A model generated the notes under the pieces. That model was not told the DNA's origin. It did not search any database and saw nothing but the letters and a program-made list of their open reading frames with translations. From contig JAAXUA010000001.1 of assembly GCA_013336275.1 (NCBI GenBank), positions 14,167 to 78,166 on the forward strand: a DNA stretch of 64,000 nucleotides. Direction: 5' to 3'. Made by a program: the position numbers and the translations under genes. The stretch is from Candidatus Falkowbacteria bacterium. GTDB taxonomy: Bacteria; Patescibacteriota; Patescibacteriia; Patescibacteriales; GWE2-39-37. Of this stretch, positions 655-61,961 are shown in pieces (position 1 is the stretch's first letter; each line of letters starts with the position of its first letter).

Positions 655-728
655 AGCCCGCATTCGTCATCGTTTTTCCTGCTTAGACGAGTACGTATGC
701 GCGATAAAAACGATGACGAATGCGGGCT
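655..728. repeat. Long hairpin element, copy 1: 23-bp perfect stem around a conserved core shared with 57469-57540
   Basis: Arms 655-677 and 706-728 are exact reverse complements. Core 674-710 (TTTTCCTGCTTAGACGAGTACGTATGCGCGATAAAAA) matches 57487-57523 at 36 of 37 positions. The outer stem sequences differ completely between copies. Confidence 0.6.
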
Positions 729-25970: not shown

Positions 25971-25975
25971 TTTAC

Positions 25976-41287: not shown

Positions 41288-41302
41288 CCTGTTCAGGTAA
41301 AT

Positions 41303-41334: not shown

Positions 41335-41338
41335 TATC

Positions 41339-45329: not shown

Positions 45330-45330
45330 T

Positions 45331-46746
45331 ATGCCTAAAAAAGACGTAAAAGAGTATTTCGACAAAATCGCGGATAAGCGCGACAAGTGGCGGGCCAGAA
45401 GCAGCTATTATCATGACGACATCAAATCATTGATGCGTTTCATTGTGCCGGCAGAGGCTTCGGTCTTGGAAATCGGCACGGCGACCGGCGACGTTTTAGC
45501 GCACCTCAAGCCCACCAGGGGGCTGGGAGTCGATATCAGCGAGGGCATGATCGGTATCGCACGCAAGAAATATCCGGATTTGCGCTTCGAGGTCGCCGAC
45601 GCGGAAAATATTAAAATAGATGAGAAATTTGATTATATCCTGCTGTCCGACATGATCAGCTTTTTTGATGACATCCAGGGTGTTTTTAAGGAACTTCACA
45701 AAGTATCTGATCATGGGTCGAGAATCGTGATTACCTATTACAATTATCTTTGGGAGCCGGTCATGGCCTTGGCCGAGAAGATTGGCCTCAAGATGCCTCA
45801 GCCGGTGCAGAATTGGATCACCAAGCACGACGTGGAAAATTTGCTGTACCTCTCCGGTTTCGAAATCGTTAAGACCGGCCAGCGCCTGCTGATTCCTAAA
45901 TATATACCAGTGCTGTCGTGGCTGTTCAACAAGTATCTGGCCAAGATGCCGCTAATCAAGCGTCTGTGCTTGGTCAATTATTGCGTCGCCCGCCAGCGGG
46001 CGGAAAAATACAGTTCCACGATCGCGCCCGAATCGGTTTCGGTTGTCATACCAGCACGCAATGAGAAGGGAAATATCGAGGATGCGGTCAAGCGTGTGCC
46101 TAATATGGGTTCACACACTGAGATTATCTTCGTCGAGGGCAACTCGACAGATGATACGCTGGAAGAGATGAAGCGGGTCCAGGCGGCTTACCCGGATAAA
46201 GACATCAAAGTCTTCGTCCAAGAAGGCAAGGGCAAGGGTGATGCCGTGCGTAAGGGTTTTAAGAACGCGACTGGCGACATCTTGATGATCCTCGACGCCG
46301 ACCTGACCGTGCGTCCGGAGGAACTGCCTAAGTTCTATGAAGCGCTCAATCAGTCGGCCGGAGAATTTATCAACGGCTCGCGCCTGGTCTACCAGCTTGA
46401 GGATGACTCGATGCGCTTCCTGAACATCTTGGGCAACAAGTTCTTCAGCTCGATGTTCAGCTGGCTATTGGATCAGGAGATCAAGGACACCCTCTGCGGC
46501 ACCAAGGTCCTGCGCCGGACAGAGTACGAGAAGATCATCAAGGGCCGGAGCTTCTTCGGCGACTTCGATCCTTTCGGCGACTTCGACCTGCTTTTCGGCG
46601 CCGCCAAGCTCAATCTCAAGATCGTCGATTTGCCTATCAGATATCAGGCCCGCGTCTACGGCGAGACCAACATCTCGCGCTTCCGCCACGGCTGGATCCT
46701 TTTGAAGATGTGTTTCTTTGCCATGAAAAAGATTAAATTCATCTGA
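45331..46746 (+). CDS. Fusion: class I SAM methyltransferase + GT2 glycosyltransferase
   Basis: N-terminus VLEIGTATGD...DYILLSD. C-terminus VSVVIPARNEKGNI, VEGNSTDDT, ILDADLT. Confidence 0.85.
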   Translation: MPKKDVKEYFDKIADKRDKWRARSSYYHDDIKSLMRFIVPAEASVLEIGTATGDVLAHLKPTRGLGVDISEGMIGIARKKYPDLRFEVADAENIKIDEKFDYILLSDMISFFDDIQGVFKELHKVSDHGSRIVITYYNYLWEPVMALAEKIGLKMPQPVQNWITKHDVENLLYLSGFEIVKTGQRLLIPKYIPVLSWLFNKYLAKMPLIKRLCLVNYCVARQRAEKYSSTIAPESVSVVIPARNEKGNIEDAVKRVPNMGSHTEIIFVEGNSTDDTLEEMKRVQAAYPDKDIKVFVQEGKGKGDAVRKGFKNATGDILMILDADLTVRPEELPKFYEALNQSAGEFINGSRLVYQLEDDSMRFLNILGNKFFSSMFSWLLDQEIKDTLCGTKVLRRTEYEKIIKGRSFFGDFDPFGDFDLLFGAAKLNLKIVDLPIRYQARVYGETNISRFRHGWILLKMCFFAMKKIKFI

Positions 46747-48587
46747 TGCTCAAGGATTTCCTGGACAAAAGGATTAGGCGCAAGACCAATTCAGGCTTCT
46801 TCATGCCGGAAATCGACGGCTTGAGATTCCTAGCGATCCTGATGGTCGTCTGCATCCACGTCTACGGCTTCGTCCTGGTCAAATATCCATATCCGGGCGA
46901 GCTCGGTTATCCGATTTTCAGAGGATTCTTTGAAAACGGCTTCAAAGGGGTGGAATTATTCTTCGTAATCAGCGGCTTCATCCTGGCTCTGCCGTTCGCC
47001 AAGCACCTGCTCAAGGGCGGCGCCAAGGTCGATATCAGAAAGTTCTATCTGCGGCGGCTGACCAGGCTCGAGCCGCCTTACATGATCGCGCTGTTCGCGA
47101 CCTTCTTCCTGCTGATTATCAAGCATAAGTACGATTTCGCCGGGCTGTTTCCCGGATTGCTCGCCTCGGTCTTTTATCTGCATAATTTCTTTGATACCTT
47201 GCCTTGGGTCAACGGGGTGACCTGGTCGCTGGAGATAGAGATGCAATTCTATCTCTTGGCCCCTTTTATCGCAGCAGTCTTCGGCTTATCGCCCAAAAGG
47301 AGAAGGGCGCTGCTAGCCGGCCTGATTTTCTTATTGCCGGCAATCCAGGCCTTTTTCCCGACCGACCACCGCTCGTTATATAATTTTCTGCAATATTTCC
47401 TGGTCGGCTATCTTTTGGTCGATTTTTATCTGAGCGGGCTAACCAAGACTTGGTCCAAGAGCTTGAACGGTCTCGCCGGCGTTTGCTTACTGATTTTGAT
47501 AATCTATCTACCGATTTCGGATAAGTTCATCGGGGTTAGGGCTGGGGAGCCGCTGTACTATCAGTTCATTTATTTGGCCGCGATTTTCCTGTTTTATCTC
47601 CTGGTTTTGTCCGAAGGGCTTTGGAAAAAGATATTCAGCAACAGCCTCGTGGCCGCGATAGGCGGCATGTGCTACACCATATATCTGTGGCACGAGTTGG
47701 TGATTTCGGCAGTCGGCAATAAGAGCATCCATATTTTCACCGGAGGGGGGGGCGCTTTGCCGGTGGTGGTCATGGTTCAGCTTTTAATCATCCTGCCGGC
47801 AACGGTGTTAGTGAGTTTATTTTTCTATGTTACAATAGAAAGACCCTGCATGGATCAGATGTGGGTTAAGAATTTGATTATGTTTTTATTCAAACTAGCC
47901 AATCGGCTCTTCAGTATCCAGTGGCTCTACAAGCCGCTTTATTTCATGTACAAGCGTTTTTCCGACCGTGACAAGATCGCTTTTCTGCGCGACAAGATCA
48001 ATCCAGGCATGACCGTCGTGGACATTGGAGCCAACATCGGCTTTTACACCATTCTGCTTTCGAAGCTGGTCGGCAAGACCGGAAAGGTCTACGCTTTCGA
48101 GCCGGAAAAAAGGAATTTCGACCTGCTCAAGAAATACGCCGCCGGATTAGATAATGTCGTACTGATCGACAAGGCTGTTGGCGAGAAGACCGGCAAGATT
48201 AAGCTGTACAAATCGAAGGATCTGAATGTCGATCATCAGACATATGATATCGGAGAGGGAAGGACTATCGAAGAGATCGATTGCGTCGCCATCGATGATT
48301 TCTTAGCCGATCAGCCGAAAGTCGATTTCATCAAGATCGATATCCAGGGCTATGACTTCTTCGCTATCAAGGGGATGGCCAAAATTTTGGCAGGAAACAG
48401 CCTGTCGATCATCGGCGAGTTCTGGCCTTATGGCCTAGAGAAGGCCGGTGTGGCCCCAGAGGAATATCTGGATTTCTTGAAGAGCCTCGGCTACAGGCTT
48501 ACGGAATTCGGCAGCGACAAGGATTTTACATATGAGATCAAGGGCGACCCCAAGCTTTATTATCTTGATTATCTGGCGATCAAATGA
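46746..48587 (+). CDS. Fusion: membrane acyltransferase-3 family O-acyltransferase + FkbM-type methyltransferase
   Basis: EIDGLRFLAILMVVCIHV and multiple TM segments. C-terminus VVDIGANIGFYT..VYAFEPEKRNF. ATGA overlap with the upstream gene. Confidence 0.85.
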   Translation: MLKDFLDKRIRRKTNSGFFMPEIDGLRFLAILMVVCIHVYGFVLVKYPYPGELGYPIFRGFFENGFKGVELFFVISGFILALPFAKHLLKGGAKVDIRKFYLRRLTRLEPPYMIALFATFFLLIIKHKYDFAGLFPGLLASVFYLHNFFDTLPWVNGVTWSLEIEMQFYLLAPFIAAVFGLSPKRRRALLAGLIFLLPAIQAFFPTDHRSLYNFLQYFLVGYLLVDFYLSGLTKTWSKSLNGLAGVCLLILIIYLPISDKFIGVRAGEPLYYQFIYLAAIFLFYLLVLSEGLWKKIFSNSLVAAIGGMCYTIYLWHELVISAVGNKSIHIFTGGGGALPVVVMVQLLIILPATVLVSLFFYVTIERPCMDQMWVKNLIMFLFKLANRLFSIQWLYKPLYFMYKRFSDRDKIAFLRDKINPGMTVVDIGANIGFYTILLSKLVGKTGKVYAFEPEKRNFDLLKKYAAGLDNVVLIDKAVGEKTGKIKLYKSKDLNVDHQTYDIGEGRTIEEIDCVAIDDFLADQPKVDFIKIDIQGYDFFAIKGMAKILAGNSLSIIGEFWPYGLEKAGVAPEEYLDFLKSLGYRLTEFGSDKDFTYEIKGDPKLYYLDYLAIK

Positions 48588-50188
48588 GTAAGCTGACCAG
48601 CCATCTTGAGGAGTGCTTCAAGGCAAACCGGCCGTTGGCCGGTTTGTTGGCGGTTTATTTTGCGGTCGCCGCCTATCATTTTTTCAGACAAGGGCTGGTC
48701 CATTTTGACGAGGCGCTTTTCGTCGTAGTCGTTAACACTTATTCCAGCATTATCCACGAAGCTCTGACCAATTGGCGCGGGCTGTTCGGCTCAGGCTTTC
48801 TGGGGCAGCTCATGGCCGACTACGGCAACATCTACACCTCGGCCAGGCCATCCTACATCTTGCCGGCCGTGCTGGCTGACGCGTTCGTCCCGGCACAATT
48901 CGTGACCAGGCTTTTGAATCTCCTAGCGGGTGCTGGCACGGTAATCTATTTCTATCGCATCCAGGATTTTTTCAGTATCGATAAGACCCTGAAGTTCTTT
49001 TCAACCCTGCTGTTGATTATTTCGCCTCTCTTCCTGATGTACGGCCGCATCGGGCTGTCGCAGTATTTATCAGCTTTCCTTTTACTGGCGACAGTCTTCC
49101 ATCTTCTGCGCTTCGTTGACAAAGGCGAGCGCCGGGAGTTGAAAATAGCATCGGTCTTCCTCTCACTCTTGCTCATGAGCCACTACAATATCCTACCCGT
49201 TGTTTTCCTTATCTGCGTGTTCGTCTTGTTTCATCTTTTTAAAACCAAAAAACCAGTCAGCGATTATCTGACTTTCGCCAGCAATTTCCTTTTTCTGCCC
49301 TTGGTCTGGGAGGCGATTACCCGATTGGGCGTATTCCTGGCTAGCTACAAGAATCTGGTCGCCCTGGGCGGCGATCAGCGCCTTTATTCGTATTTCCAGG
49401 AGGTGATCAATCAGCTTAGCGGCGTGAGCAGCACCAAGGGATTCGCCCTGGACCAGCCGCTGTACTATTTCAAACTATTGTTCCAGACCGAAGGTTTAGT
49501 TTTTTCTATCCTGCTCGCTGCCGCCCTGTTCTGGATACTCCTTAATATCAGAAAGATAAGATATGGCTACATCTTCGTTTTGGCCTATTTTTTCATTGTC
49601 TTCTTTTCCTTGTCATATCTTAAATTCCCTCGCAATTTCGTAACCATCCTGCCATTGGTTTATCTCTCCATCCCTGTAGCTTTGCAGCATTTCCTGACCA
49701 CTCGCCGTAACAGCGCAAAAAGAATCGCGCCAGCAATCCTGATTCTGGTCCTGGTTATCGGAGCAGGGATCAATTATCGCAACTATCGGGCGATATACGG
49801 ACTAAAGACGAATTTCCAGGAGATTGCCCGGTGGATCACGAAAAAATACGACAAGGATTCGACGCTGGTACTGACCTCGATTCCGCCGGTCTATCGCGTT
49901 TATCTGCCTGGTTATCGCGTAGAGGGCGTGTATGAGCCGTCATCTTGGCAGGAGCAGGCCAAAGGCAAAAAGAATATCATCTACGTCAGGGATTACACCA
50001 CAACCATGAACGCATATGATTTAGACGTGTCCGGATATCGTTTCAAAACCGTTCAAGAGTTTGAAGATAACGTGCACGACCTGCCGCCTTTGATCTTGGA
50101 ATATTATTACCGCAGCGCTGCTGACAGCCAGAAGATGATCGACGGCACGCGCGGCGGCCGCGACAAGATCATTGAGCTGTCACTTTAA
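48584..50188 (+). CDS. Polytopic membrane protein, probable GT-C fold glycosyltransferase
   Basis: Many TM segments, with an acidic VHFDEALF motif in the first loop and a soluble C-terminal domain. The assignment is by architecture. Confidence 0.6.
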   Translation: MSKLTSHLEECFKANRPLAGLLAVYFAVAAYHFFRQGLVHFDEALFVVVVNTYSSIIHEALTNWRGLFGSGFLGQLMADYGNIYTSARPSYILPAVLADAFVPAQFVTRLLNLLAGAGTVIYFYRIQDFFSIDKTLKFFSTLLLIISPLFLMYGRIGLSQYLSAFLLLATVFHLLRFVDKGERRELKIASVFLSLLLMSHYNILPVVFLICVFVLFHLFKTKKPVSDYLTFASNFLFLPLVWEAITRLGVFLASYKNLVALGGDQRLYSYFQEVINQLSGVSSTKGFALDQPLYYFKLLFQTEGLVFSILLAAALFWILLNIRKIRYGYIFVLAYFFIVFFSLSYLKFPRNFVTILPLVYLSIPVALQHFLTTRRNSAKRIAPAILILVLVIGAGINYRNYRAIYGLKTNFQEIARWITKKYDKDSTLVLTSIPPVYRVYLPGYRVEGVYEPSSWQEQAKGKKNIIYVRDYTTTMNAYDLDVSGYRFKTVQEFEDNVHDLPPLILEYYYRSAADSQKMIDGTRGGRDKIIELSL

Positions 50189-50214
50189 GAATCGAATTAA
50201 TAAGAATAAACAAT

Positions 50215-50841
50215 ATGGATTTGGAAAAAATCGTCCCCGAGTATCATTCGAATAACTTTCTCGTGACCTGGCTGTTCCACAAGCGCTTGGCGACTTCAAT
50301 CTCGTTGTCGGAGACGGTTTTAAAGATGGATGGCGCCAAGATTCTCGACGTCGGCTGCGGCGAAGGTTTGCTGATGAAGATGATTGAAGGGAAATATGCT
50401 GGCGTGCAAACCTTCGGCATGGATAACGACAAGGATGTGCTCGCTTTGAAAGGCAAGGTCAAAGGCGAGGTGTCAGTCGGTGACATCAACCGGCTTGAGT
50501 ACGCTGACAACACGTTCGATGCGGCTTATTGCCTCGATGTTCTGGAGCATATCGAAGACTTGTCCAAGCCAGGTTCGGAGTTGGCAAGAGTCCTGAAGCC
50601 CGGCGGCCTCTTGATTATCAGCGGTCCGACCGAGAGTCCGATCTACAAACTTCTCCGATGGGTTATCAAAGGTACCTTCTCCAGCATCGAGGGGCCAGCA
50701 GCCAGTCCGCACCTGCTGAATATCTATCAGATAGAGAAATTTTTCAAAGGCGCGAAGTTCGCGTTGGTATCTAAAAAAAGCCTTCCGCTTATTCGTCCGC
50801 TCAATCTGTTCAACTTATTAGCCTTCAAGAATGAAAAATAA
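50215..50841 (+). CDS. Class I SAM-dependent methyltransferase
   Basis: ILDVGCGEGLL, FDAAYCLDVLEHI, LKPGGLLIIS. Confidence 0.85.
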   Translation: MDLEKIVPEYHSNNFLVTWLFHKRLATSISLSETVLKMDGAKILDVGCGEGLLMKMIEGKYAGVQTFGMDNDKDVLALKGKVKGEVSVGDINRLEYADNTFDAAYCLDVLEHIEDLSKPGSELARVLKPGGLLIISGPTESPIYKLLRWVIKGTFSSIEGPAASPHLLNIYQIEKFFKGAKFALVSKKSLPLIRPLNLFNLLAFKNEK

Positions 50842-52090
50842 GCTTCTGCTAACGATTATTGCCTTGGCCTTCATCATCCGCTTGGTGCCGATGTTCTTTT
50901 TGAGCTATCCGGTGGAAAATGATGCACCGCAATACCGCGACCTCGGCATCAGTTTGGCCGAGCATCTGCAGTATTCCAGGGATGGCATCAACCCATCCAT
51001 CGAACGCCCACCGGGCTATCCGGTATTCCTGGCGGTCTTATATAAGTTTTTCGGACAAGGCAAACAGATGGTGATTTTTTTCCAGGTGCTCTTAAGCACG
51101 CTGACAGTGTGGCTGACTTTCTGGCTCTCACGCCTTTTGACCGGTAAAGACAAGACCGCTCTTTGGGCAGCTGCCCTCGTGGCCCTCTATCCGCTATTCA
51201 TCTATTATAATCTGTTTCTTTATTCGGAAACTTATGCCGTGGTCCTGTTTCTTTTGTCTCTGATATTCCTATTGAAAGGTGCCAAATCTAATGATCGTCG
51301 GATGTTCTTCTGGAGCGGCTTGGCTTTCGTATTTTTCTTTTTGACCAAACCGATTTTCGCGCCAGCTGGAGCATTATACGTTGCCTTCGTTTGGCTGGCG
51401 TTACCCAGAGGGGCGGCACTGAAGAGTTTGGCATTATTCATGCTGCCGATAGTTTTGGTTTGGGGGGCGTGGATCGGGCGCAACTACAAGGCCTTCGGCA
51501 CGCCGCTGCCTTTCGGCGTCGGACTCGGTCCGGTGCTGTTCGGCGGCAATTATCCCGAATTCAAAGCCGTCTGGCCGGGGTACGATGTCGTTACCAAGAT
51601 CGCTCCGCCTGGAAACATGAGCCAGATCGAGTATGACGCATATCTCAAAAGCCTGGCCTTCAAATCGATCAAGGAAAATCCCGGCACGACCGCCAAGCTG
51701 TTCGCGTATAAGGCAGGCAAATTCCTTTCCACTGTCAGAGACTTCAAGGAGATGGTGATGTTTCGCGGAGGCAGCAAGAATGCCTTTTTGCTCGATGTCG
51801 TTTTTCCGATATTATTCCAAGCGTATAAGTATAGCAAGATAATCCTGTCCCTCCTGTTCCTGGCCGGTTCCGCTCTGGTTTTGCGGCGCTTCAAGGACAA
51901 GGAAAGCCACCCGATGATTCTGGTGGCCACGGTTTCAGCTTTCAGCTTATTGGCCCATTCCATGCTTTATGTCGACGAGCGCTACCATTTGACAACCTTC
52001 CCATTACATGTGATTTTAGCTATATATGCCTTTGAATTAATCAGGAATAAATACAAGAATGAAACTATCAATACTGATCCCAGCGTTTAA
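50831..52090 (+). CDS. GT-C membrane glycosyltransferase (ArnT/PMT_2-like)
   Basis: YPVENDAPQYRDLG first-loop motif and more than 10 TM segments. Confidence 0.7.
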   Translation: MKNKLLLTIIALAFIIRLVPMFFLSYPVENDAPQYRDLGISLAEHLQYSRDGINPSIERPPGYPVFLAVLYKFFGQGKQMVIFFQVLLSTLTVWLTFWLSRLLTGKDKTALWAAALVALYPLFIYYNLFLYSETYAVVLFLLSLIFLLKGAKSNDRRMFFWSGLAFVFFFLTKPIFAPAGALYVAFVWLALPRGAALKSLALFMLPIVLVWGAWIGRNYKAFGTPLPFGVGLGPVLFGGNYPEFKAVWPGYDVVTKIAPPGNMSQIEYDAYLKSLAFKSIKENPGTTAKLFAYKAGKFLSTVRDFKEMVMFRGGSKNAFLLDVVFPILFQAYKYSKIILSLLFLAGSALVLRRFKDKESHPMILVATVSAFSLLAHSMLYVDERYHLTTFPLHVILAIYAFELIRNKYKNETINTDPSV

Positions 52091-52748
52091 CGAAAAAACG
52101 ACCATATTGGAGCTTTTGGCCAAGGTGGAAGCCGTTGACTTGTCATCGCTTGGCGTCGAGAAGGAAATCGTGATTATCGACGATTTTTCGACAGACGGTA
52201 CCAGGGAAATGATCAAGGACTACCCCGGCGAAGCGGTAAAGATATTCCATGACAAGAATTACGGCAAAGGCCATGCTATCAGGAGCGGCATCGCGCAGAT
52301 GACGGGCGACATCGCCATAATCCAGGATGCCGACCTGGAATACGACCCGAACGATTACTACAAGCTGGTCAAGCCGATAATAGATGGCGAAGCCGCCGTG
52401 GTCTATGGCTCAAGGTACCTGAACAAGAATCAGAAGGGCGGCGCTTTTTATTACTTCGGCGGCCGTATGCTGAGCGTGATGGCTAATCTCCTGTATGGAC
52501 TGAAAATTACGGACGAGCCGACGTGCTACAAAGTTTTCAAGGCCGACCTTTTGAAGAGTATTGATCTGAAGTGCGAGAAGTTCGAATTCTGCCCTGAGGT
52601 AACTGCCAAAGTCGCACGCCAGGGTCACAAGATACTTGAGGTGCCTATTAATTATTATCCCAGGTCCGTTGATGAAGGCAAGAAGATCAAGCTGCATGAC
52701 GGCCTTGAGGCGATCTGGGTCTTGATAAAATATCGATTCATTAAGTAG
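52059..52748 (+). CDS. GT2 polyprenol-phosphate glycosyltransferase-like enzyme
   Basis: LSILIPAFNE, IIDDFSTDGT, IQDADLEYDP. Paralog of 58376-59071. Confidence 0.85.
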   Translation: MKLSILIPAFNEKTTILELLAKVEAVDLSSLGVEKEIVIIDDFSTDGTREMIKDYPGEAVKIFHDKNYGKGHAIRSGIAQMTGDIAIIQDADLEYDPNDYYKLVKPIIDGEAAVVYGSRYLNKNQKGGAFYYFGGRMLSVMANLLYGLKITDEPTCYKVFKADLLKSIDLKCEKFEFCPEVTAKVARQGHKILEVPINYYPRSVDEGKKIKLHDGLEAIWVLIKYRFIK

Positions 52749-52762
52749 CGAACATCAATAAT

Positions 52763-53419
52763 ATGAAGCCGAGTGAAAGAGAAGACAATTTATATTCATC
52801 AGGTAAGACGACCCAGGTCGAGCGAGAGGAGCGGTTGATGCTGGATATGTTGGGCAAGGGCAATGGGCGGCTGCTCGACATCGGCTGCGGTGAAGGCAGC
52901 ATATCCATGAAGTTGAAAGAAATGGGATACGCGGTCGTCGGAATAGATTTTTCCCAGGTCGGTGTCGATTTGGCCAGGCAGAAGGGAATCGATGCCCGAC
53001 AGGTCGATGTCGATGGCGGATTGCCGTTCAGCGATGCCGAGTATGATGCAGTGTGGATGGGGGATATCCTGGAGCACGTTTTCGACCCGATCCAACTGCT
53101 GGCCGAATCCCGAAGGGTGATTAATGATGGCGGCAGCGTCTATCTGACCACGCCTAACGACATGTGGATTCTGACCAGGATCAAGGCGCTGTTCGGCTAC
53201 TCTCCGCAATCCAGTATTTATAGGGCCTGCAGGCAATGCAAGCATCACTCGGTGATGAGTTTGGAGCTGCTTGATTATTTCATCGCCGAGGCCGGACTGA
53301 AGCTCGGTGATTTCCATGCCGACTGCCAGATCCCGAAGACCGGCATCAGATTTTATACCAAAAGCAGATTCGTCGCCTCGCTATTCGGACGCGTTTTCGT
53401 AGTGAGGTTATCAAAATAA
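52763..53419 (+). CDS. Class I SAM-dependent methyltransferase
   Basis: LLDIGCGEGS, YDAVWMGDILEHV. Confidence 0.8.
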   Translation: MKPSEREDNLYSSGKTTQVEREERLMLDMLGKGNGRLLDIGCGEGSISMKLKEMGYAVVGIDFSQVGVDLARQKGIDARQVDVDGGLPFSDAEYDAVWMGDILEHVFDPIQLLAESRRVINDGGSVYLTTPNDMWILTRIKALFGYSPQSSIYRACRQCKHHSVMSLELLDYFIAEAGLKLGDFHADCQIPKTGIRFYTKSRFVASLFGRVFVVRLSK

Positions 53420-53423
53420 ACAA

Positions 53424-54938
53424 ATGGGCGTCGACAACCTGAAAAGCAAATTATTCCTCGGCTCAGCCTATCAGTACTCCGCAATAATTGTCGGTGCTTT
53501 TTTCGGCTTTTTAACAATAGCTTTGCTCGTCAGGAAGCTGTCTTTGGAAGATTTCGGTTTTTACAATTTCGTCGGCAGCTTCATCCTTTTTGTCGACATC
53601 GCCACCTCATTCGGCCTGGTTTCGGTCGTTCAGCGGTACTTGCCTGAATATCGTGCCAAAAAGGATGCCGGATTCCAGAAAAAGATCATCACTTCGGCCC
53701 TAGCCAGCCGTCTTGTCGCGATAATCGTTTTCGGTGCGGCATTTTTCTTCCTTAGAGATTATGTGATTGATTTTTTCAAGTTGCCGGAATACTTCAACGG
53801 CCTGCTGCCGCTGATACTTTTGCTGATTCTATTCAAGCTGCAATCGCAGATCGTGGGCGATGCGGCCTTGGTATCGATATTCGAGAATAAGTTTTTCGGC
53901 CTGGTCAAGAATTTTTATAACGTTTTCAAGTTCGCGCTTTTCTATCTGTCGTTGAGATCAGGTTACGGCATAACCGGAGTCCTGTATGTTTGGTGTTTCA
54001 TGGAGTTAGCCGCGCTGTTGCTCTACTCTTACAAGATTAGGACAAGCGTTTACTCTTTACCCGAGAATGGCAGCACCGAAGCCTTGCCGTATCGCCGGTT
54101 CTTCAATTTCGGCGTGCAGTTGTGGATCCATAATATCTTGTACCTCTTCCGCGACCGGGTTGCTGATGTCTTTATCATCTCATACTTCTGGGGACAGGCG
54201 GAGGTGGGGCTTTATTCTTTGGCCTTCGGAATTCCGCTGACTGTTTTCGCCTTTTCTCCTGGCAACGTGCTGCGTTCGATCTCTATCAGTTTCCTGACGC
54301 ACAAGTATTCCTTGGACCATGACAAGTCGACCGTAAATCATTTTTTCCAGATAATAAACAAGGTGACGTTCTTCACCATCTGGCCGGTTCTGGTAATCTT
54401 CGCAGTCTTGGCAGAGGAGATAATGACGATCGTTTTCAGATCGGGCCACCCCGGGATAGTCGGCTGGTTCGCGGTTTCCGCTGGCTTCGCTTTCATTGCC
54501 CAATTCTTGTCAGCCTTTTCAGTCGTGCTTTATACTATCGAGGAGTCGAAAATCGCTTTGCGGGCCTCGACCTTTTATCTTTATAACCTCCTGATGGACC
54601 TGCTGCTCGTGCCTCGCTTCGGTTATGGTGGCGCCATCTTGGCGACCGGGACTACCAGTATCCTGCTGATACCTTATTATCTCCTCACCTTCAAGCGCTT
54701 CGGTTTGGAGCTGCGCTATCCTTGGAAAGCATTTCTGGTCATGGTCCTGAACTCTGTGCCGATGATTCTCGTCTTGTACCTCGCCAGCAGCCATGTCAAA
54801 AGCATTGCGCAGTTAGGATTGATTTCACTCGTTTCATTTTCGGTCTATTTGTTCGCATCATATTGTAACAAAGCTTTTGATGAGAGCGATAGGAATTTTA
54901 TCAACGAGGCTATGGGCAGGAAAGTTTGGAATTTCTAA
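53424..54938 (+). CDS. Polysaccharide/oligosaccharide flippase (MOP/Wzx-like)
   Basis: A ~14-TM protein of typical Wzx size, located in a glycan cluster. Confidence 0.75.
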   Translation: MGVDNLKSKLFLGSAYQYSAIIVGAFFGFLTIALLVRKLSLEDFGFYNFVGSFILFVDIATSFGLVSVVQRYLPEYRAKKDAGFQKKIITSALASRLVAIIVFGAAFFFLRDYVIDFFKLPEYFNGLLPLILLLILFKLQSQIVGDAALVSIFENKFFGLVKNFYNVFKFALFYLSLRSGYGITGVLYVWCFMELAALLLYSYKIRTSVYSLPENGSTEALPYRRFFNFGVQLWIHNILYLFRDRVADVFIISYFWGQAEVGLYSLAFGIPLTVFAFSPGNVLRSISISFLTHKYSLDHDKSTVNHFFQIINKVTFFTIWPVLVIFAVLAEEIMTIVFRSGHPGIVGWFAVSAGFAFIAQFLSAFSVVLYTIEESKIALRASTFYLYNLLMDLLLVPRFGYGGAILATGTTSILLIPYYLLTFKRFGLELRYPWKAFLVMVLNSVPMILVLYLASSHVKSIAQLGLISLVSFSVYLFASYCNKAFDESDRNFINEAMGRKVWNF

Positions 54939-54947
54939 AATAACCAC

Positions 54948-55532
54948 ATGACAAGAAGCGAACTCAAAAAAGAAATCGAGGGCGACCTGTATCGCTATTA
55001 CGGCAAGACGGGCATGGCGGCTTTTTTCAAGGCCTATTTCGCTATTCCTGGTTTCAGGTTTTCTTATCGATTGCGGAAGTGCAGCTACTATTTCAAGAAC
55101 GGCAGCCTGTTGTCCAAACCGCTTTATGCCTGCAATTGGCTTAAGCTGCGCGGGCTTAAGTACAGGTTCGGCTTCGATATCTCCGAAAAGACTGAAATCG
55201 GCAAAGGCCTGTATTTGGGGCATTTCGGTGGGGTGGTTATAAATCCAAAAGCCGTAATCGGCAAGAATGTCAGCATCGGCCATGGCGTGACGCTAGGCAA
55301 GGTTCAGCGAGGCGCCAAAATCGGATATCCGACCATAGGCGATGGCGCTTGGATCGGGCCGAACGCTGTAATCGTCGGAGGTATAACGGTAGGACGGAAT
55401 ACTTTGATCGGGCCAGGGGCTTATGTCAATTTCGATGTCCCGGAAAACTCGGTCGTTATCGGCAACCCGGGTCAGATAGTCTCCGACAAAGGAGCTTATC
55501 CGGATTACGCCTCTAATCTCGTAACTGACTAA
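54948..55532 (+). CDS. Hexapeptide-repeat O-acetyltransferase (CysE/WcaB-like)
   Basis: Left-handed beta-helix repeats (IGKNVSIGHGVTLG..IGDGAWIGPNAVIVGGITVG). Confidence 0.8.
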   Translation: MTRSELKKEIEGDLYRYYGKTGMAAFFKAYFAIPGFRFSYRLRKCSYYFKNGSLLSKPLYACNWLKLRGLKYRFGFDISEKTEIGKGLYLGHFGGVVINPKAVIGKNVSIGHGVTLGKVQRGAKIGYPTIGDGAWIGPNAVIVGGITVGRNTLIGPGAYVNFDVPENSVVIGNPGQIVSDKGAYPDYASNLVTD

Positions 55533-55533
55533 T

Positions 55534-56637
55534 ATGAAACTGGCCTTATTTTTCACCAATGGCGTATCCTTGAAGACCTGGGAAAAGGTCGGGATGTTCG
55601 ATCGCGAGGTCAAGCCCTACAACCGCCTGGCCGAGAGCTTCGAAAAGATATATTTCGTGACCTATGGGCAAGAAGACGCGATGTATTCCGGCAAGTTCAA
55701 GAGCAATATCGTAATCCTGCCCAAGAAATTGAATATTCCTGATAAGATTTACAGCCTGGTTCTGCCTTGGGTCTACCGCAAGGAGCTTAAGGATGCTGAT
55801 ATCTACAAGACCAATCAGATGCAGGGGGCCTGGTCGGCCATCATCGCTCGCTATCTTTTCGGCAAGAAAGCGGTGGTGCGTTGCGGCTACCAGTGGTCGC
55901 AAGCCTCGATCGGTTGGAAAATAGGACCCATCAAAAAAGTCTTGATATATCTGCTAGAGCTCATAAGCTATCGATTGGCTGATAAGGTTTTTGTGACCAC
56001 TGGTTTAGCTCGGGATTACGCGGTTAAAAGATATAAGTTAAAAGAAGGGAAGATCAAGGTCGTGCCGAATTATATCGATGTCGACCTTTTCAAGCCGCTC
56101 GGCTTAGCCAAGCAGCCTCGCAGCATGATTTTTATCGGCCGGCTCGAGAAGGAGAAGAACCTGCTCAATCTTCTTGAGGCTCTGGAGGGGCTGGATGTGG
56201 AATTGGATATCTATGGCAAGGGTGTTCTAAGGGAGAAATTGGAGAGCGTGGCTAAGGAGAAGAATCTGCGAGTCAATCTCAAGGGCAACCTGGCCAATAA
56301 TCTGTTGCCCGAAGAAATCAATCGCCATGAGATATTCATATTGCCTTCATTATATGAAGGCAATCCCAAGGTTCTACTCGAGGCTATGGCTTGCGGTTCG
56401 GCGGTGATCGGCGCCAGGGTTCAGGGCATAGAGAACTTGATCGATCATGGACGGAACGGCCTGTTGTGCGAGACGGATTCCGCTTCAATCCGCCAGTCGG
56501 TTATCGAAATGCTTGGTGATGAGACGCGGCGACAGCAGATGGGTGCGGAAGCAGCCAAGTTCATTTCGGAAAACAACGCCCTTGATGTCATCCTGAAAAG
56601 CGAGCTGACAGAATATAATCTATTATTACAAAAATAA
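55534..56637 (+). CDS. Glycosyltransferase family 4
   Basis: EGNPKVLLEAMACGSAVIGARVQGIENLI. Confidence 0.85.
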   Translation: MKLALFFTNGVSLKTWEKVGMFDREVKPYNRLAESFEKIYFVTYGQEDAMYSGKFKSNIVILPKKLNIPDKIYSLVLPWVYRKELKDADIYKTNQMQGAWSAIIARYLFGKKAVVRCGYQWSQASIGWKIGPIKKVLIYLLELISYRLADKVFVTTGLARDYAVKRYKLKEGKIKVVPNYIDVDLFKPLGLAKQPRSMIFIGRLEKEKNLLNLLEALEGLDVELDIYGKGVLREKLESVAKEKNLRVNLKGNLANNLLPEEINRHEIFILPSLYEGNPKVLLEAMACGSAVIGARVQGIENLIDHGRNGLLCETDSASIRQSVIEMLGDETRRQQMGAEAAKFISENNALDVILKSELTEYNLLLQK

Positions 56638-57429
56638 ATGGTTTATTTCGACAAAAAAAATAACCGGCTGGTTATGGTCGAGAATCGCGCCGATTCCGAT
56701 TATTGGGACAGCCATTGGGAAACCAGTCAACTGGAGAATAAGATAAAAGAGGGTTTGAGGAACCGCATCGTCAAGAAAAACACCAAAAGATTCCTGCCGT
56801 CCGGCGGCCGCATCATCGAGGGCGGCTGCGGCATCGGCCAGCTGGTCTACGCGCTCGGAGAGTGGGGCTATGATGCTTACGGCGTCGATTATGCCGAAAA
56901 GACCATCAAGAAAACCAAGGAGCTGATGCCGGAATTGAAGATCGAAATCCAAGACGTCAAGAAGATGGGTTTTGCGGACAGTTTCTTTGACGGATATTGG
57001 TCACTCGGGGTGATCGAGCATTTTTATGACGGCTTCGATGATATAATTTCCGAGGCGGCCAGGGTGGTCAAGCCGGGTGGGTATCTTTTTCTGACTTTCC
57101 CGCACATGTCCTTGCTCAGGAAAATCAAGATCAAGTTCGGCGGCTACCGTGCACTGCCGGATATCTTTGAGAAAGAGAGTTTCTATCAGTTCATGCTGGA
57201 CGGGCGGTCGGTCCAGACCAAAGTCGAGAAACACGGCTTCGAGCTGGTGATGCGGCAGAATTACGGAGCGATCAAGGGCATCAAGGACGAAGTTCCGGCG
57301 CTCAAGGTCTTCTTGCAAAAAGTGCATGATGGCAACGATCTCGTCTCGAAAATAATCAGGCGGCTTATCGCCTTGCTGTTCGATCGTTCGGCCGGACACA
57401 TCACCCTTTTAGTTTTCAAAAGGAAATAA
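56638..57429 (+). CDS. Class I SAM-dependent methyltransferase
   Basis: IIEGGCGIGQL, FDGYWSLGVIEHF, VKPGGYLFLT. Confidence 0.8.
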   Translation: MVYFDKKNNRLVMVENRADSDYWDSHWETSQLENKIKEGLRNRIVKKNTKRFLPSGGRIIEGGCGIGQLVYALGEWGYDAYGVDYAEKTIKKTKELMPELKIEIQDVKKMGFADSFFDGYWSLGVIEHFYDGFDDIISEAARVVKPGGYLFLTFPHMSLLRKIKIKFGGYRALPDIFEKESFYQFMLDGRSVQTKVEKHGFELVMRQNYGAIKGIKDEVPALKVFLQKVHDGNDLVSKIIRRLIALLFDRSAGHITLLVFKRK

Positions 57430-57468
57430 GATTCTTGGAAAATTTTATTGGTAAGCAATCTTCGTTGG

Positions 57469-57540
57469 TCCGGCTTCCGGCATGGCTTTTCCTGCTTAGA
57501 CGAGTACGTATGCGCTATAAAAACCATGCCGGAAGCCGGA
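57469..57540. repeat. Long hairpin element, copy 2
   Basis: 17-bp perfect stem TCCGGCTTCCGGCATGG/CCATGCCGGAAGCCGGA plus T4/A4 (one bulged C), enclosing the same core as 674-710. Confidence 0.6.
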
Positions 57541-57576
57541 TTAGCTCAGGGGATTATTAAAATATTATAAAATAAT

Positions 57577-58371
57577 ATGCCCAAGGTAAGCGTCATCATG
57601 AGCGTCTATAACGAAAGCCGGCACCTGTCTCAGGCGATCGAGAGCATTTTGACGCAGGATTTCAGGGATTTTGAGTTTCTGATTTTCAATGACGGCTCGA
57701 CTGATGACTCGGGAAAGGTGATCAAGCAATACGCCGACAAAGATCAGCGCATAAGATATAGCGAACAGGGAAACATCGGCCTGACCAAGACCCTGAACCG
57801 GGCGTTGGCTCAAGCTGAAGGCGAATATATCGCCCGGATGGATGCCGATGACGTTTCGCTTCCTGGAAGGCTCTCCCGCGAGGTCGAATATCTGGACAAA
57901 CACCCCGAAACCGCCGTTGTTTCCGTCTTTGCCGACGTCATCGATGACCAAGGTGAAAGGATAGGCGAACATCGTCCAGGCCTTTCCGATAAGGAGGTCA
58001 GAAGCTTGATCTTGTTTTCCAACCAAATCAACCACCCAGCGGTCATGTTCCGCAAGAGCGTGGTTGGACAGGTGGGCGGCTATGACGAGCGATATACCTA
58101 TGCCCAAGATCTCGACTTGTGGCTTCGCGTCATGGAGAAGCACCAAGTCTGCAATTTGCCTGAGGTTTTGCTGCTTTGGCGCAAATCCGACAAGGCTCTA
58201 GGCGTCAAGCATTATGAAAGGCAGAAATATTTCGCCCGCAAGGCCCGCTTGGCCGCCATCAGGCGCGGGCAGTATCCGGCGTATATGGCCATTGCCGTCT
58301 ATTGGCTGGACTTGAGGCGATTCGTGCCGGAAGGCGTTAAGAATTTTTTTAAAAAAATAGTATCGAAGTAG
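57577..58371 (+). CDS. GT2 glycosyltransferase
   Basis: VSVIMSVYNE, IFNDGSTDDS, RMDADDVS. Confidence 0.9.
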   Translation: MPKVSVIMSVYNESRHLSQAIESILTQDFRDFEFLIFNDGSTDDSGKVIKQYADKDQRIRYSEQGNIGLTKTLNRALAQAEGEYIARMDADDVSLPGRLSREVEYLDKHPETAVVSVFADVIDDQGERIGEHRPGLSDKEVRSLILFSNQINHPAVMFRKSVVGQVGGYDERYTYAQDLDLWLRVMEKHQVCNLPEVLLLWRKSDKALGVKHYERQKYFARKARLAAIRRGQYPAYMAIAVYWLDLRRFVPEGVKNFFKKIVSK

Positions 58372-58375
58372 CTTT

Positions 58376-59071
58376 ATGAAACTATCAATCATCATCACCT
58401 GTTACAACGAAGCCCGGACGATCAGGGAAAATCTGAGCAAGGTTGAAGCCGCCAGCTTGCCCGAAGGCACGGAAAAGGAAATAATCATCGTCGACGATTG
58501 TTCGACTGATGGATCGAAGGACATGCTGAAGCCGATCGAGGAGCGCCATCGGGTCATCTATCATGAGAAGAATACCGGCAAGGGCGGAGCGATCCGTACC
58601 GGCTTGGCTGTCGCCAGCGGTGATTATATCGTCATCCAGGACGCCGACTTGGAACTCGACCCCAACGATCTCCAATCTTTGATGAAACCCCTCCTCGAAG
58701 GCAAGGCTGACCTGGTTTTGGGATCGAGATTTTTGGACCGGCCGATGAATTTTTATAACAAGAGTTATCTGAAGTATTTTTTGGCCAATCGCGGCATCAC
58801 TACGGCCTTTAATTTCCTATATTTTATCTGGTTGACTGACGTGAACTGCGGCTACAAGATGTTTATCTCTAAGATTGGCAAAAATTTGACATTCGAGGCC
58901 AATAGCTTCGATATCGAGGTGGAGATTCTTGCTAAAGTCATTAAAGGCGGTTATCATATTAAAGAGGTTCCGGTGTCTTATAATCCTAGGAATCTGGAAG
59001 AAGGCAAGAAAATCAGGCTCAAGCATGCCTTCATGATGCTGAGCCGGATGCTCAAATGCCGATTTAATTAA
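58376..59071 (+). CDS. GT2 polyprenol-phosphate glycosyltransferase-like enzyme
   Basis: LSIIITCYNE, IVDDCSTDGS, IQDADLELDP. Paralog of 52059-52748. Confidence 0.85.
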   Translation: MKLSIIITCYNEARTIRENLSKVEAASLPEGTEKEIIIVDDCSTDGSKDMLKPIEERHRVIYHEKNTGKGGAIRTGLAVASGDYIVIQDADLELDPNDLQSLMKPLLEGKADLVLGSRFLDRPMNFYNKSYLKYFLANRGITTAFNFLYFIWLTDVNCGYKMFISKIGKNLTFEANSFDIEVEILAKVIKGGYHIKEVPVSYNPRNLEEGKKIRLKHAFMMLSRMLKCRFN

Positions 59072-59091
59072 AACCAATTAGGCTACTATTT

Positions 59092-60021
59092 ATGAAGATT
59101 CTAATCACAGGAGGACTGGGTTTCCAGGGATCTCACCTGACCAAGCATTTCTTAGACAAAGGACATGATGTTACGGTCCTGAATACCTACAGCGAACATT
59201 CGGAAAACCACTTGGATGCTTTAGCGGCTAAGCCGCGCGTGGTTTGGGGTAGCGTGACGGATAAAGAACTGGTGCGCAAGACGGTTCGCGATCATGATGT
59301 TATCTTTCACTTGGCCGCCAATATCAATGTCGATGAATCGATCAAGTTGCCTTACTCCTTCGTGGATGTGAATGTCTACGGCACGATGAATGTGCTGGAG
59401 GCGGTCAGGGAATTCGGCGGGCGCTTGATTTACGCCAGCACCTGCGAGGTTTATGGCGTTAACCCGGGGATGGATCTTCTGAACGAGGACGCCCCATTGA
59501 AGCCGCACAGCCCATATGCCGCCACCAAGGCCGCCGCTGACCGCCTGTGCTACGCTTATTTCAAGACTTACAATCTGGACGTCGCCGTAGTACGTCCTTT
59601 CAATATTTTCGGTGAAGGGCAGAAGGATGGCCAATTCGGCGCCTTGATTCCGATCATGGTCAGGCGCGCTTTGCATGGAGAAAATCTCCAAGTCTTCGGC
59701 AGCGGCTCGCAGACCAGGGATTACATGTATATCCAGGATCTGATTTCGGCTTACGACATGGTGATGGAGACGCAGAACTCGGCCGGACAGGTCTACAACT
59801 TCGGCACCGGCGTCGAGACCTCGGTCCGCGACATCGCCGAGTATATCGCCAAGAAAATGGGTGTGACCGTCGAATACACCAACTCCCGCCCGGGCGAGGT
59901 TTCCCGTTTCTGTGCCGACCTCACCAAAGCCAAGGGCCTGGGATTCACCGCCAAGTTCACCATCTGGGAGGGTATTGATAATTATATCGCTTGGAAGAAA
60001 GTCCAGAAGAACAAGGCCTAA
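59092..60021 (+). CDS. NAD-dependent nucleotide-sugar epimerase/dehydratase (SDR)
   Basis: ITGGLGFQGSHL, STCEVYG and YAATKAAAD (YxxxK). Confidence 0.9.
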   Translation: MKILITGGLGFQGSHLTKHFLDKGHDVTVLNTYSEHSENHLDALAAKPRVVWGSVTDKELVRKTVRDHDVIFHLAANINVDESIKLPYSFVDVNVYGTMNVLEAVREFGGRLIYASTCEVYGVNPGMDLLNEDAPLKPHSPYAATKAAADRLCYAYFKTYNLDVAVVRPFNIFGEGQKDGQFGALIPIMVRRALHGENLQVFGSGSQTRDYMYIQDLISAYDMVMETQNSAGQVYNFGTGVETSVRDIAEYIAKKMGVTVEYTNSRPGEVSRFCADLTKAKGLGFTAKFTIWEGIDNYIAWKKVQKNKA

Positions 60022-60034
60022 CCGTTGTCGTCTT

Positions 60035-61297
60035 ATGAAAAAACGGTATCTATTTTCGCTTTTTTTTCTCGCTATAGTTTTCCAATTCTTTTATAGCCTT
60101 TATTATCCGGCCAACCAGCCGGATAATCCTTGCCAACTCGGTTCCGAGTATTTTTTGGTCAAGGATCTAGAAAAGATAAAGAACGAATATAATGCCAGCA
60201 GCGGCGATCTTTCAAAGACCGATAAATTCTTCAAGACATTCCCGGATTATCGAGTCATCTGCGATTCTATGTCCTACGTGCTCCAGTCAAGGAATTGGCC
60301 GGAGTCATACAAAGAGCGCAGCCTGTACGTCGATCACCCGCTTTATGACATTTTCGCCACGCTGATACTCTCTCCTTATCGTCTTTTCGTTGGCGTGCCG
60401 AGTTATGCCATCGTCTTCGGTTCGCTGATCGCTGCGAATCTTTTGATGCTTTTCGCGGCTGTGTGGTTTTTCTATGAACTGACGGCAAGATTTTTCAGCA
60501 ACAAGGTCGCGGCCACCAGTTCGCTGCTTCTGATTTTTTCCCCCTTTGTCCACACGATGGTTACCCAGCCGACCAGTTCGGGTATGATGGAAATTTTTGT
60601 CGTAGCCGCCAGCTTGTGGCTGTTTTTCGATTACGCGAAGAAACCGAGTTGGAGAAAGCTAGCGGTGAATTCATTGCTTTTCGGCAGCTTGATGCTCGGG
60701 AAGCAGATATTCGCCCTATCGCTATTCTTTATCATCATCGCCCTTAAGCACAAGAAGATTAAAGAAGCGGCAGCCTTCATGTTCCTGCAGTTGGTACCCA
60801 CTGCCTTGTGGGCCATTTATGTCAAACTCGTTCTCGGAGTAAGTTTTTATTCGGCCAACGTCACCGGTTATGAGCAGGGATCGTGGTTTCTTAAAGTGAA
60901 GTATTGGGAGCTTTATAAGATGTCGAATATCGTGCTGAGCGCATTGCCCAACTTTACTATCACGTTGCTGTTCGGTTTCTTGGTTGTTCCTGTGGTCCTC
61001 TCGGTTTATGGTGTCTATAAGATGGAAGACAAGAAAAAAGCATTTTATTATTGGACTTTCTTGCTGTCTTTCTTGGCCCTGTTTTTCGCCATGAAATATT
61101 ATCGCCCGTCGCTTTCTTTCCTGGTTTATCCGGCGATCTATCCGACCGCCGTCTTGGGACTTGCAGAAGTCCGACGCTTGGCAGCCAAGCGTAGCGAACT
61201 GGCGGGCAAGGTCATTTATTATGGCATCTTAATCGCATTGATCTTTTTTTCCAGCCTCAATGTCTACAAGCTGGGGGTCTGGGATCTGGTCTTGTAA
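60035..61297 (+). CDS. Polytopic membrane protein (possible GT-C glycosyltransferase or polymerase)
   Basis: MKKRYLFSLFFLAIVF start and more than 10 TM segments. The track start at 59912 overlaps the upstream gene in another frame. Confidence 0.6.
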   Translation: MKKRYLFSLFFLAIVFQFFYSLYYPANQPDNPCQLGSEYFLVKDLEKIKNEYNASSGDLSKTDKFFKTFPDYRVICDSMSYVLQSRNWPESYKERSLYVDHPLYDIFATLILSPYRLFVGVPSYAIVFGSLIAANLLMLFAAVWFFYELTARFFSNKVAATSSLLLIFSPFVHTMVTQPTSSGMMEIFVVAASLWLFFDYAKKPSWRKLAVNSLLFGSLMLGKQIFALSLFFIIIALKHKKIKEAAAFMFLQLVPTALWAIYVKLVLGVSFYSANVTGYEQGSWFLKVKYWELYKMSNIVLSALPNFTITLLFGFLVVPVVLSVYGVYKMEDKKKAFYYWTFLLSFLALFFAMKYYRPSLSFLVYPAIYPTAVLGLAEVRRLAAKRSELAGKVIYYGILIALIFFSSLNVYKLGVWDLVL

Positions 61298-61319
61298 TAT
61301 AATTAACTAGAATAAAATA

Positions 61320-61961
61320 ATGAGAAGAACATCCGCTAGACAGGTAATCGATTTCTTATCTTTCCCATTCAGGGCGCCGTTGCTCATCGAGGATGATTTT
61401 TGGTGCTTTTCCTCGATCATGACGGAGAGATATGATTACGTCGCCCGGGAGGTCAGGGGCAACTGTTTGGACGTCGGCTGCGGCAAGTTCAATAAATTCA
61501 TCGTGCAATTCCTGGACGGAAAGGGTGTCGGCATCGATGTCTTCAAATATGAAGGGTTGACCGACGAGAATGTCGTGGCCGACCTGACCAGTCTGCCATA
61601 TCCTGACGGCACCTTTGACAGCGTGACTTTCATCGCCAACATCAACCATGTCCCGCTGCGTGACCGTGACAAGGAGCTGTCAGAGGCTTACCGTTGTTTG
61701 GCGCCTGGCGGCAATATCATCATCACTATGGGCAACCCGTTGGCGGAAATTCTGGCGCACAAGGTCGTCCATCTGCGCGACAAGATATTCGGATCGACTT
61801 GCGATGTTGATTCGATCAGAGGTATGGATGAGGAAGAGGAATATTATCTTTTGGATAAGGAAATCATCGAAAGGATGGAGAAGGCGGGCTTTACCAAGAT
61901 CAAGAAAAAATATTTCTTGACCCAGTGGGGCTTAAATCACATGTTCATCGGCTGGAAGTGA
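61320..61961 (+). CDS. Class I SAM-dependent methyltransferase
   Basis: CLDVGCGKF, FDSVTFIANINHV, LAPGGNIIIT. Confidence 0.75.
   Translation: MRRTSARQVIDFLSFPFRAPLLIEDDFWCFSSIMTERYDYVAREVRGNCLDVGCGKFNKFIVQFLDGKGVGIDVFKYEGLTDENVVADLTSLPYPDGTFDSVTFIANINHVPLRDRDKELSEAYRCLAPGGNIIITMGNPLAEILAHKVVHLRDKIFGSTCDVDSIRGMDEEEEYYLLDKEIIERMEKAGFTKIKKKYFLTQWGLNHMFIGWK

Follow-up and report, generated by a model that had tools for sequence, protein, structure and literature searches.

Within the 64,000 nucleotides of Candidatus Falkowbacteria DNA analysed here (the window), a run of genes at positions 44928-61961 contains only one gap of more than 26 nt. This gap measures 147 nt, lies within a long glycosylation operon between a methyltransferase gene and a glycosyltransferase gene, and is occupied by a hairpin (copy 2, Table 1). 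The hairpin starts 39 nt after the methyltransferase stop (end at 57429) and is followed, after 36 nt, by the ATG of the glycosyltransferase gene at 57577. Both distances, and the singularity of the gap, had been given correctly in the initial annotation, where the hairpin was proposed to act as a punctuation mark in the transcript, through processing, termination or the binding of a protein. Genomes of the candidate phyla radiation are small, and repeats and regulatory RNAs are believed to be scarce in them. We asked what kind of element this hairpin is, and whether the operon needs it.

Table 1. Positions in the window of the two hairpin repeats, the parts of copy 2 and the genes flanking copy 2
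Feature	Position	Strand	Basis or remark
Hairpin repeat copy 1	655..728	+	model R1: 96.9 bits; inverted repeat I1
Upstream gene, class I SAM methyltransferase	56638..57429	+	Pfam
Hairpin repeat copy 2, whole element	57469..57540	+	model R1: 90.1 bits, E 3e-18; inverted repeat I2
Left arm TCCGGCTTCCGGCATGG (T/C-rich)	57469..57485	+	5' of the core in every family member
C.A mismatch position (C57486 vs A57523), then T4 tract	57486..57490	+	T 57487-57490 pairs with A 57519-57522
Asymmetric conserved centre CCTGCTTAGACGAGTACGTATGCGCTAT	57491..57518	+	mini-hairpin inside: ACG 57500-57502, loop AGTA, CGT 57507-57509
A5 tract	57519..57523	+	T4 of copy 2 pairs with 4 of the 5 A's
Right arm CCATGCCGGAAGCCGGA	57524..57540	+	17 perfect pairs with left arm 57469-57485
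Downstream gene, family 2 glycosyltransferase (GT2)	57577..58371	+	Pfam; full-length 264-aa homologs support the start codon

Structure of the hairpin and its companion in the window

Copy 2 reads TCCGGCTTCCGGCATGG-C-TTTT-CCTGCTTAGACGAGTACGTATGCGCTAT-AAAAA-CCATGCCGGAAGCCGGA. Its description as the second copy of a conserved-core hairpin, with 17 perfect pairs followed by T4/A4, was confirmed: the core at 57487-57524 equals that of copy 1 (674-711) at 37 of 38 positions, the sole difference being G703 versus T57516. What had been described as a bulged C is in fact a symmetric 1x1 mismatch, in which C57486 faces A57523. A search of the window for the core with up to three mismatches returned exactly these two copies, where none is expected (100 shuffles). 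Compared to shuffled sequences, copy 2 folds far more stably, with z values of -7.3 and -7.25 as RNA and of -7.2 and -7.5 as DNA (two strands each). For both copies together the values are about -7.3 to -7.9 as RNA and -7.2 to -9.8 as DNA, with the strands being equal. An independent assembly (L015) holds an identical copy of copy 2.

Copy 1 is located between a tRNA-synthetase gene (PF00579, called trpS here) and ddl. It has perfect arms of 23 bp, including T5/A5, around a 28-nt centre. Its 18-bp arms are entirely unlike those of copy 2. From all copies described below, the repeat unit can be defined as an 18-bp arm, T5, an asymmetric conserved centre of 28 nt, A5 and the complementary arm, which adds up to ~80 bp (about 72-80).

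Genomic setting of copy 2

The window genes with Pfam matches are ordinary for the group and comprise NAD salvage, kinases, large surface proteins and the long glycosylation operon. A Shine-Dalgarno-like motif was found for only 12 of the 32 genes checked across the window and for almost none in the glycosylation operon. As nearly all operon genes are without such a motif, its absence is not a special trait of the GT2 gene, which had been singled out as leaderless-looking.

The operon at 44928-61961, where these motifs are almost absent, also has a slightly lower GC content (0.46-0.50). The NAD-salvage cluster (4.8-20 kb) has strong AAGGAG motifs and a GC content of 0.53-0.58. This contrast could point to lateral exchange of an island or to a difference in how translation is initiated.

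Two gene-free stretches were encountered elsewhere in the window. The first (27367-27738, 372 nt) is found upstream of a 1208-aa ORF without a Pfam match; among its GC-rich hairpins is an inverted repeat at 27654-27674/27727-27747. The second (25370-25975, 606 nt) precedes an ECF sigma factor gene. Neither stretch has a match in Rfam at gathering level. In addition, perfect palindromes of 13-18 bp with loops of 1-5 nt occur at 16242-16270, 31423-31454, 4663-4693, 23501-23528 and 41301-41337. Some of these five have flanking A/T runs and resemble terminators (e.g. AAACCCCTCCCCGG/CCGGGGAGGGGTTT); the conserved core is absent from them.

Terminators, tRNAs and other known signals

A strong GC-rich hairpin in the sole sizeable gap of an operon could be an intrinsic (Rho-independent) terminator or attenuator that splits the operon into two transcription units. 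We consider this very improbable. No copy has a T-tract 3' of the stem; the T5 is inside the hairpin, before the loop. Scans for sigma-70 promoters and intrinsic terminators around both window copies gave nothing relevant or matching the element, and no promoter or terminator consensus flanks the copies. A conserved loop of 37 nt (28-37 nt) is not a feature of terminators, and the element is absent from a syntenic operon (L016, see below).

The sequence GCCGGATTAGCTCAGGGG, at the 3' side of the stem, resembles the 5' end of a tRNA over 18 nt, which had led to the suggestion of a tRNA-like flank. A tRNA gene remnant or a tRNA-linked integration scar is hardly credible, as this likeness is at chance level. 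Its box-A-like octamer TAGCTCAG occurs twice in the window, while 1.5 occurrences are expected; ARAGORN detects no tRNA in the window, and Rfam gave no tRNA hit for the two copies even at E<=10. Furthermore, 7 of the 18 nt belong to the right arm of the hairpin, the flank is found in no other copy, and the GT2 start at 36 nt downstream of the hairpin leaves no room for the rest of a tRNA. The terminator and the tRNA remnant are thus essentially excluded.

Known RNA families gave no match either. There is no hit to Rfam 15 at gathering level in the window or in L011. At E<=10, the best matches of the two copies are generic long-hairpin microRNA models, with 24 bits against a threshold of 68, followed by weaker chance matches to CssrB and ceN65. 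K-turn, sarcin-ricin and hammerhead motifs, sigma-54/ECF promoters, dif/Xer sites and invertible promoters were rejected on anatomy alone.

A small repeat family in one lineage

Including the two copies from the window, 15 occurrences from about 10 distinct loci were collected. The 13 further ones (about 8 loci) are from a related metagenome-assembled genome (MAG) and from metagenome contigs. All copies are intergenic and all carriers represent one Falkowbacteria-like lineage of the candidate phyla radiation. When 185,579 species genomes were scanned for the exact 25-mer, two hits were obtained, both in MAG GCA_964443495.1; a third, variant copy adjoins one of them, and this MAG thus has at least three copies. 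A degenerate scan of metagenomes identified seven contigs, six of which are from one sample. Loci with homologs of Ddl and GT2 added L010 (with an orthologous copy), L015 (with the identical copy 2) and L011 (with a variant). The patterns of the genome and metagenome scans were all core-based, which biases the discovery of paralogs to intact cores. As most copies were found with the core as pattern, core conservation across paralogs is in part a search artefact.

Twelve copies were aligned (alignment A1). Covariance model R1 was run against ~245 kb, consisting of the window and 17 loci, and found the known copies, their reverse strands, the variant at L011:3036-3179 and one weak match. The latter (L016:2893-2949, 19.6 bits, E 0.014) is AT-rich, with a GC content of 0.14, and was taken as a chance match. 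Scans of viral contigs with the exact and the degenerate core, and blastn comparisons to phages and plasmids, revealed nothing relevant. Considered as guides or as copies of nearby sequence, the arms gave no additional matches in the window above chance level. The hairpin repeat family has apparently not been described before, and belongs to a candidate-phyla-radiation lineage.

The title of MAG GCA_964443495.1 (L001/L002/L013), 'uncultured Gammaproteobacteria bacterium', is probably a wrong label, as the Ddl of this MAG shares 70% identity with the Falkowbacteria Ddl encoded in the window and its genes are locally arranged as in L010, a close relative of the window.

Copies A and B of L002 are arranged in tandem. 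A hybrid was found at L009:4916-4998 (minus strand, L009A) when compared to L002:117-199. It shares an orthologous core and right arm with L002 copy A, while its left arm and ~30 nt upstream have been replaced; homology resumes further upstream, with the flanks being otherwise orthologous. This arrangement suggests recombination at or near the core, or a deletion between tandem copies via the shared core; the hybrid is unlikely to be a simple chimera of the assembly. In the variant L011:3036-3179 both core halves are intact, but in place of the apical ACG-AGUA-CGU there are ~66 inserted nucleotides, in which a perfect 13-bp hairpin (TTTTTAGTGCAAA/TTTGCACTAAAAA) is found. The outer right arm of this variant is disrupted in its inner half. 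An Archease-LigT gene pair lies ~390 nt upstream of the variant, and a 58-aa ORF separates the two.

Orientation and sporadic occurrence

Flanking genes were assigned from Pfam hits together with a codon-usage score. The core is in sense orientation at six loci, which are copy 1 (= L005/L010), copy 2 (= L015), L001, L003, L008 and L011. It is antisense at three loci, with four copies. Co-directional flanks are clear at two of these, L002A/B (= L009A/B) and L007; the antisense copy of L004 is found at the 3' end of tgt. As copies occur in both orientations, a sense-strand RNA signal that is defined by the core cannot be their common function. L001 (sense) and L002 (antisense) are both among minus-strand genes of one MAG contig, and orientation is thus probably not fixed relative to replication either. 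The flanking genes have no functional theme in common.

The element has been gained or lost between close relatives. It is present in the trpS|ddl spacer of the window and of L010. In L011, where Ddl is 88% identical to that of the window, this spacer has only 11 nt and the element is absent. In L012 (Ddl 87% identical) the spacer is filled by an unrelated terminal-inverted-repeat element, and in L013 the element is missing upstream of ddl, where the gene order differs. The unrelated element (L012:6160-6260) is ~97 nt long; its ends are 12-bp terminal inverted repeats (CTGTCATTCCCG...CGGGAATGACAG), and the hairpin ATTCCCGCGCAGGCGGGAAT is found inside it. Among the fetched loci it is present a single time, and the window has no copy of it. 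Palindromic elements seem to use the trpS|ddl spacer as a landing site.

The same holds for copy 2. L016 has a syntenic operon (methyltransferase-GT2-GT2-epimerase, then two reverse-strand GT4 genes), in which the spacer between the methyltransferase and the first GT2 gene is 5 nt and the element is absent. Absence from orthologous operons had been named beforehand as speaking against a role in the operon. The glycosylation operon does not need the element, which in this place is most simply a dispensable interspersed repeat. Neither the fixed sense orientation nor the conservation between orthologs that mark a cis-acting mRNA element was found. Because the element occurs in either orientation and is missing from equivalent operons, it looks like an interspersed DNA repeat rather than like a required operon signal. 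As to the proposed punctuation of the transcript, a required role is not supported, in view of the two orientations, the syntenic absence and the lack of a U-tract, whereas protein binding survives, more probably at the DNA level.

Complementary arms and an invariant centre

Across the 12 aligned copies the centre is near-invariant, while the arms are on average only 43% identical. Nevertheless, pairing is found in 95.7% of the cells in the alignment, and both sides have changed in 19 of the 31 pairs. These pairing measures were not reached in any of 500 shuffles, and slid registers pair at 32-50%. The arms are not free of sequence constraint: U11-A69 is found in 12 of 12 copies and U18-A62 in 11 of 12, and there is a loose common consensus (yCCrGCTTTTG...), with the arms falling into sub-groups that are not confined to single loci or genomes. 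In all cases the T-rich arm precedes CCTGCTTAG on the 5' side, which implies that arm and centre are inherited as one oriented unit, and that whole units, not spacers alone, differ in orientation.

As the core had served as search pattern, we compared the window to L010, which was fetched via its Ddl protein and thus independently of the core. Four-fold degenerate sites of ddl are identical at 71 of 124 positions (57%). The T5-centre-A5 segment is identical at 37 of 38, the arms at 29 of 36, the upstream flank at 13 of 19 and the downstream flank at about 28 of 31 positions. Within the arms of this orthologous copy 1 (L010/L005) there are three fully compensated pairs and one G.U. The conservation of 37/38 in the centre against 57% at neutral sites indicates strong purifying selection on the centre at a fixed locus, with the arms being constrained to pair.

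Covariation that supports the helices, as is expected for structured RNAs, is thus clearly present. The family might be a new structured RNA, in which a conserved irregular helix (U.G, U/C, U.G, G/A, then a 3-bp stem and an NNUA loop) sits on top of the long closing stem and would serve to bind a protein or to direct processing, either in cis in untranslated regions or as a small independent RNA. We consider this a serious, though less likely, alternative. Besides the very strong covariation, the inner mini-hairpin is in its favour. ACG-AGUA-CGU has changed to GCG-UGUA-CGC in one lineage (L002A/L009A), which converts the inner pair from A-U to G-C, and L005 and L008 have single changes that are G.U-compatible on the core-sense strand, where the other strand would have C.A. 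All three changes keep pairing on the core-sense strand, which counts against a DNA repeat. The apical tetraloop varies and can be replaced by a long hairpin, as in L011, where the inner stem stays paired despite the ~66-nt insertion. In-situ purifying selection on the centre and the intergenic location of all copies also fit an RNA.

The outer stem, however, argues for maintenance at the DNA level. It has 243 Watson-Crick, 2 G.T, 4 A.C and 4 other cells, so that wobble pairs (2 G.T versus 4 A.C; 3 versus 2 when counted for the mRNA strand) give no signal for a strand assignment. Divergent RNA stems under selection are expected to be rich in G.U, and on one strand only, while this census is symmetric. 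As the pattern is strand-symmetric and G.U pairs are lacking, the covariation fits DNA-level maintenance equally well. For an RNA, it is difficult to explain why G.U is essentially absent from arms that are only 43% identical, with A.C mismatches being as frequent. An RNA is further disfavoured by the fact that, of 10 independent copies, 4 are antisense to flanking genes that are co-directional, by the lack of a conserved flanking promoter or terminator, by the missing element at syntenic loci, by the lack of a gene function in common, and by the lack of an Rfam relative. Finally, a perfect stem of 22-23 bp is expected to be a substrate of RNase III rather than part of a stable small RNA.

DNA-level symmetry of the arms would also be found in a non-mobile chromosomal site of the host, the centre of which binds a nucleoid-associated, recombination or replication protein on a cruciform, with such sites being sparsely spread over the chromosome. 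In line with this idea, the repeat is placed irrespective of orientation, its copy number is low, its centre is under selection and some arm positions are conserved (U11-A69, U18-A62). It is rather improbable, as the site is lost or absent at orthologous positions in relatives with a Ddl 87-90% identical to that of the window, as tandem and hybrid copies exist, and as the clade is very narrow, with the exact 25-mer in one of 185,579 species. We know of no candidate binding protein for such a site.

Relation to known palindromic elements

REP elements are described as short (20-40 bp) imperfect palindromes that have, at one end, an unpaired tag (GTAG or CGTC), and that can act secondarily as RNA hairpins (PMC3733652). 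The hairpin repeat is similar to REPs and REPINs in being a short extragenic hairpin-forming palindrome that occurs in either orientation, single or clustered, with presence varying between relatives, and in its location between genes that are co-directional or convergent, frequently right behind a stop codon. It differs in its length (~72-80 bp versus 20-40 bp), in having no GTAG/CTAC or CGTC/GACG tag in the 4-nt flanks of 10 copies, and in its copy number, which is a handful (two in 64 kb) instead of dozens to hundreds. Its arms, at 43% identity, have no master sequence. In REPINs the inverted REPs, i.e. the stem, are conserved while the spacer is free, whereas in the hairpin repeat the ends vary and the centre is invariant. 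Also, REPs and REPINs are mobilised by RAYT (Y1/HUH, PF01797) transposases, and no RAYT gene adjoins any copy examined.

MITEs and other palindromic repeats (Correia/NEMIS, ERIC, RUP, BOX) are likewise small, non-coding, intergenic, hairpin-forming, co-transcribable and polymorphic in their presence; Correia elements are processed by RNase III. MITEs, however, have family-conserved terminal inverted repeats and target-site duplications, while the terminal arms of the hairpin repeat differ and there are no direct repeats at its boundaries. In summary, the hairpin repeat behaves like REP/REPIN and MITE-like repeats, yet fails their definitions.

Two other systems read folded hairpins. Integron attC sites are recognised as folded single-stranded hairpins, with arms that are complementary yet vary between sites. 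In attC it is the base of the hairpin that is conserved (R/L boxes, RYYYAAC/GTTRRRY) while the apex varies, which is the reverse of the hairpin repeat; the latter also has no R-box, integrase or cassette array. In the HUH Rep hairpin origins of geminiviruses, circoviruses and rolling-circle plasmids, a variable stem presents an invariant loop to a sequence- and structure-specific protein. Such origins occur once per replicon and beside a rep gene, whereas the hairpin repeat is chromosomal and multi-copy, has a partly self-paired centre of 28 nt, and has no rep gene nearby. By analogy, the hairpin repeat seems closest in logic to these HUH-read hairpin origins.

Candidates for a mobilising enzyme were searched for. 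The Pfam assignments, which cover 37 of the 52 predicted genes of the window and the neighbours of the other copies, include no transposase, recombinase, integrase or Y1_Tnp. When two RAYT-like proteins were compared to the element-bearing loci by tblastn, only chance hits were obtained, and none of the best 120 RAYT homologs is on the source contig or the MAG contigs. RAYT homologs are common in Patescibacteria.

L017, with a Ddl that is 68% identical, has two Y1_Tnp (RAYT-like) genes (10980-11700 and 16735-17480). The one directly after ddl has REP-like palindromes (TTTGTCGAGGAC[C/G]GTCCTCGACAAA) on either side, further copies of which are at 11195, 12910 and 16185, and a perfect inverted repeat of 22 bp (ATAATGGGGTCAGGTACCTTTT) encloses the other. 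This clade of the candidate phyla radiation thus does possess REP/RAYT systems. The palindrome that flanks the RAYT genes of L017 differs from the hairpin repeat.

Origin and significance of the hairpin repeat

Taken as a whole, we favour, tentatively and at slightly less than an even chance, a lineage-specific interspersed palindromic DNA repeat, in which the centre is a putative protein-recognition module and the arms are kept complementary at the DNA level. Template switching during replication is known to perfect hairpin stems and to homogenise the arms of inverted repeats, and makes multi-base 'compensatory' changes in a single step (PMC8794818, PMC8604942). Template switching, selection for hairpin or cruciform extrusion, or both, would keep the arms complementary. 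The invariant centre, at the tip of the hairpin, may be the recognition site of a trans-acting protein, which could be a DNA-binding factor of the host or a mobilising enzyme (e.g. an HUH/Y1-type nuclease, a type that occurs in the clade). Within the glycosylation operon, the hairpin repeat would be a passenger. Once transcribed, its 22-bp stem could serve secondarily as a putative RNase III site or as a barrier to 3' exonucleases.

Several observations count against such a DNA repeat. In the sequence examined no mobilising gene adjoins any copy, and target-site duplications and a GTAG/CGTC tag are lacking. The copy number seen is low, and copies within one metagenome are old and divergent, which is not what a transposon family with recent proliferation would show. 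Also, variable ends around a conserved centre are the opposite of what is found in REPs, REPINs and MITEs.

This reversed pattern may represent a new class of hairpin-borne module, in which an invariant asymmetric centre of 28-38 nt is carried on a drifting, perfectly complementary 18-bp stem and is read by a structure- and sequence-specific protein. We consider this unlikely. The module might be mobilised independently of RAYT, with the centre and the hairpin shape alone being recognised and the arms perhaps being re-templated by fold-back synthesis. Or it might be a protein-binding or self-processing RNA motif of candidate-phyla-radiation bacteria that is expressed from its own strand.

The family could be a clean natural example of DNA-level hairpin maintenance by template switching that mimics RNA covariation, which would call for caution in the discovery of RNA motifs, or it could provide a handle on a hairpin-reading protein in uncultured bacteria. 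For the glycosylation operon the finding means that the gap is occupied by a dispensable repeat and not by a conserved regulatory signal.
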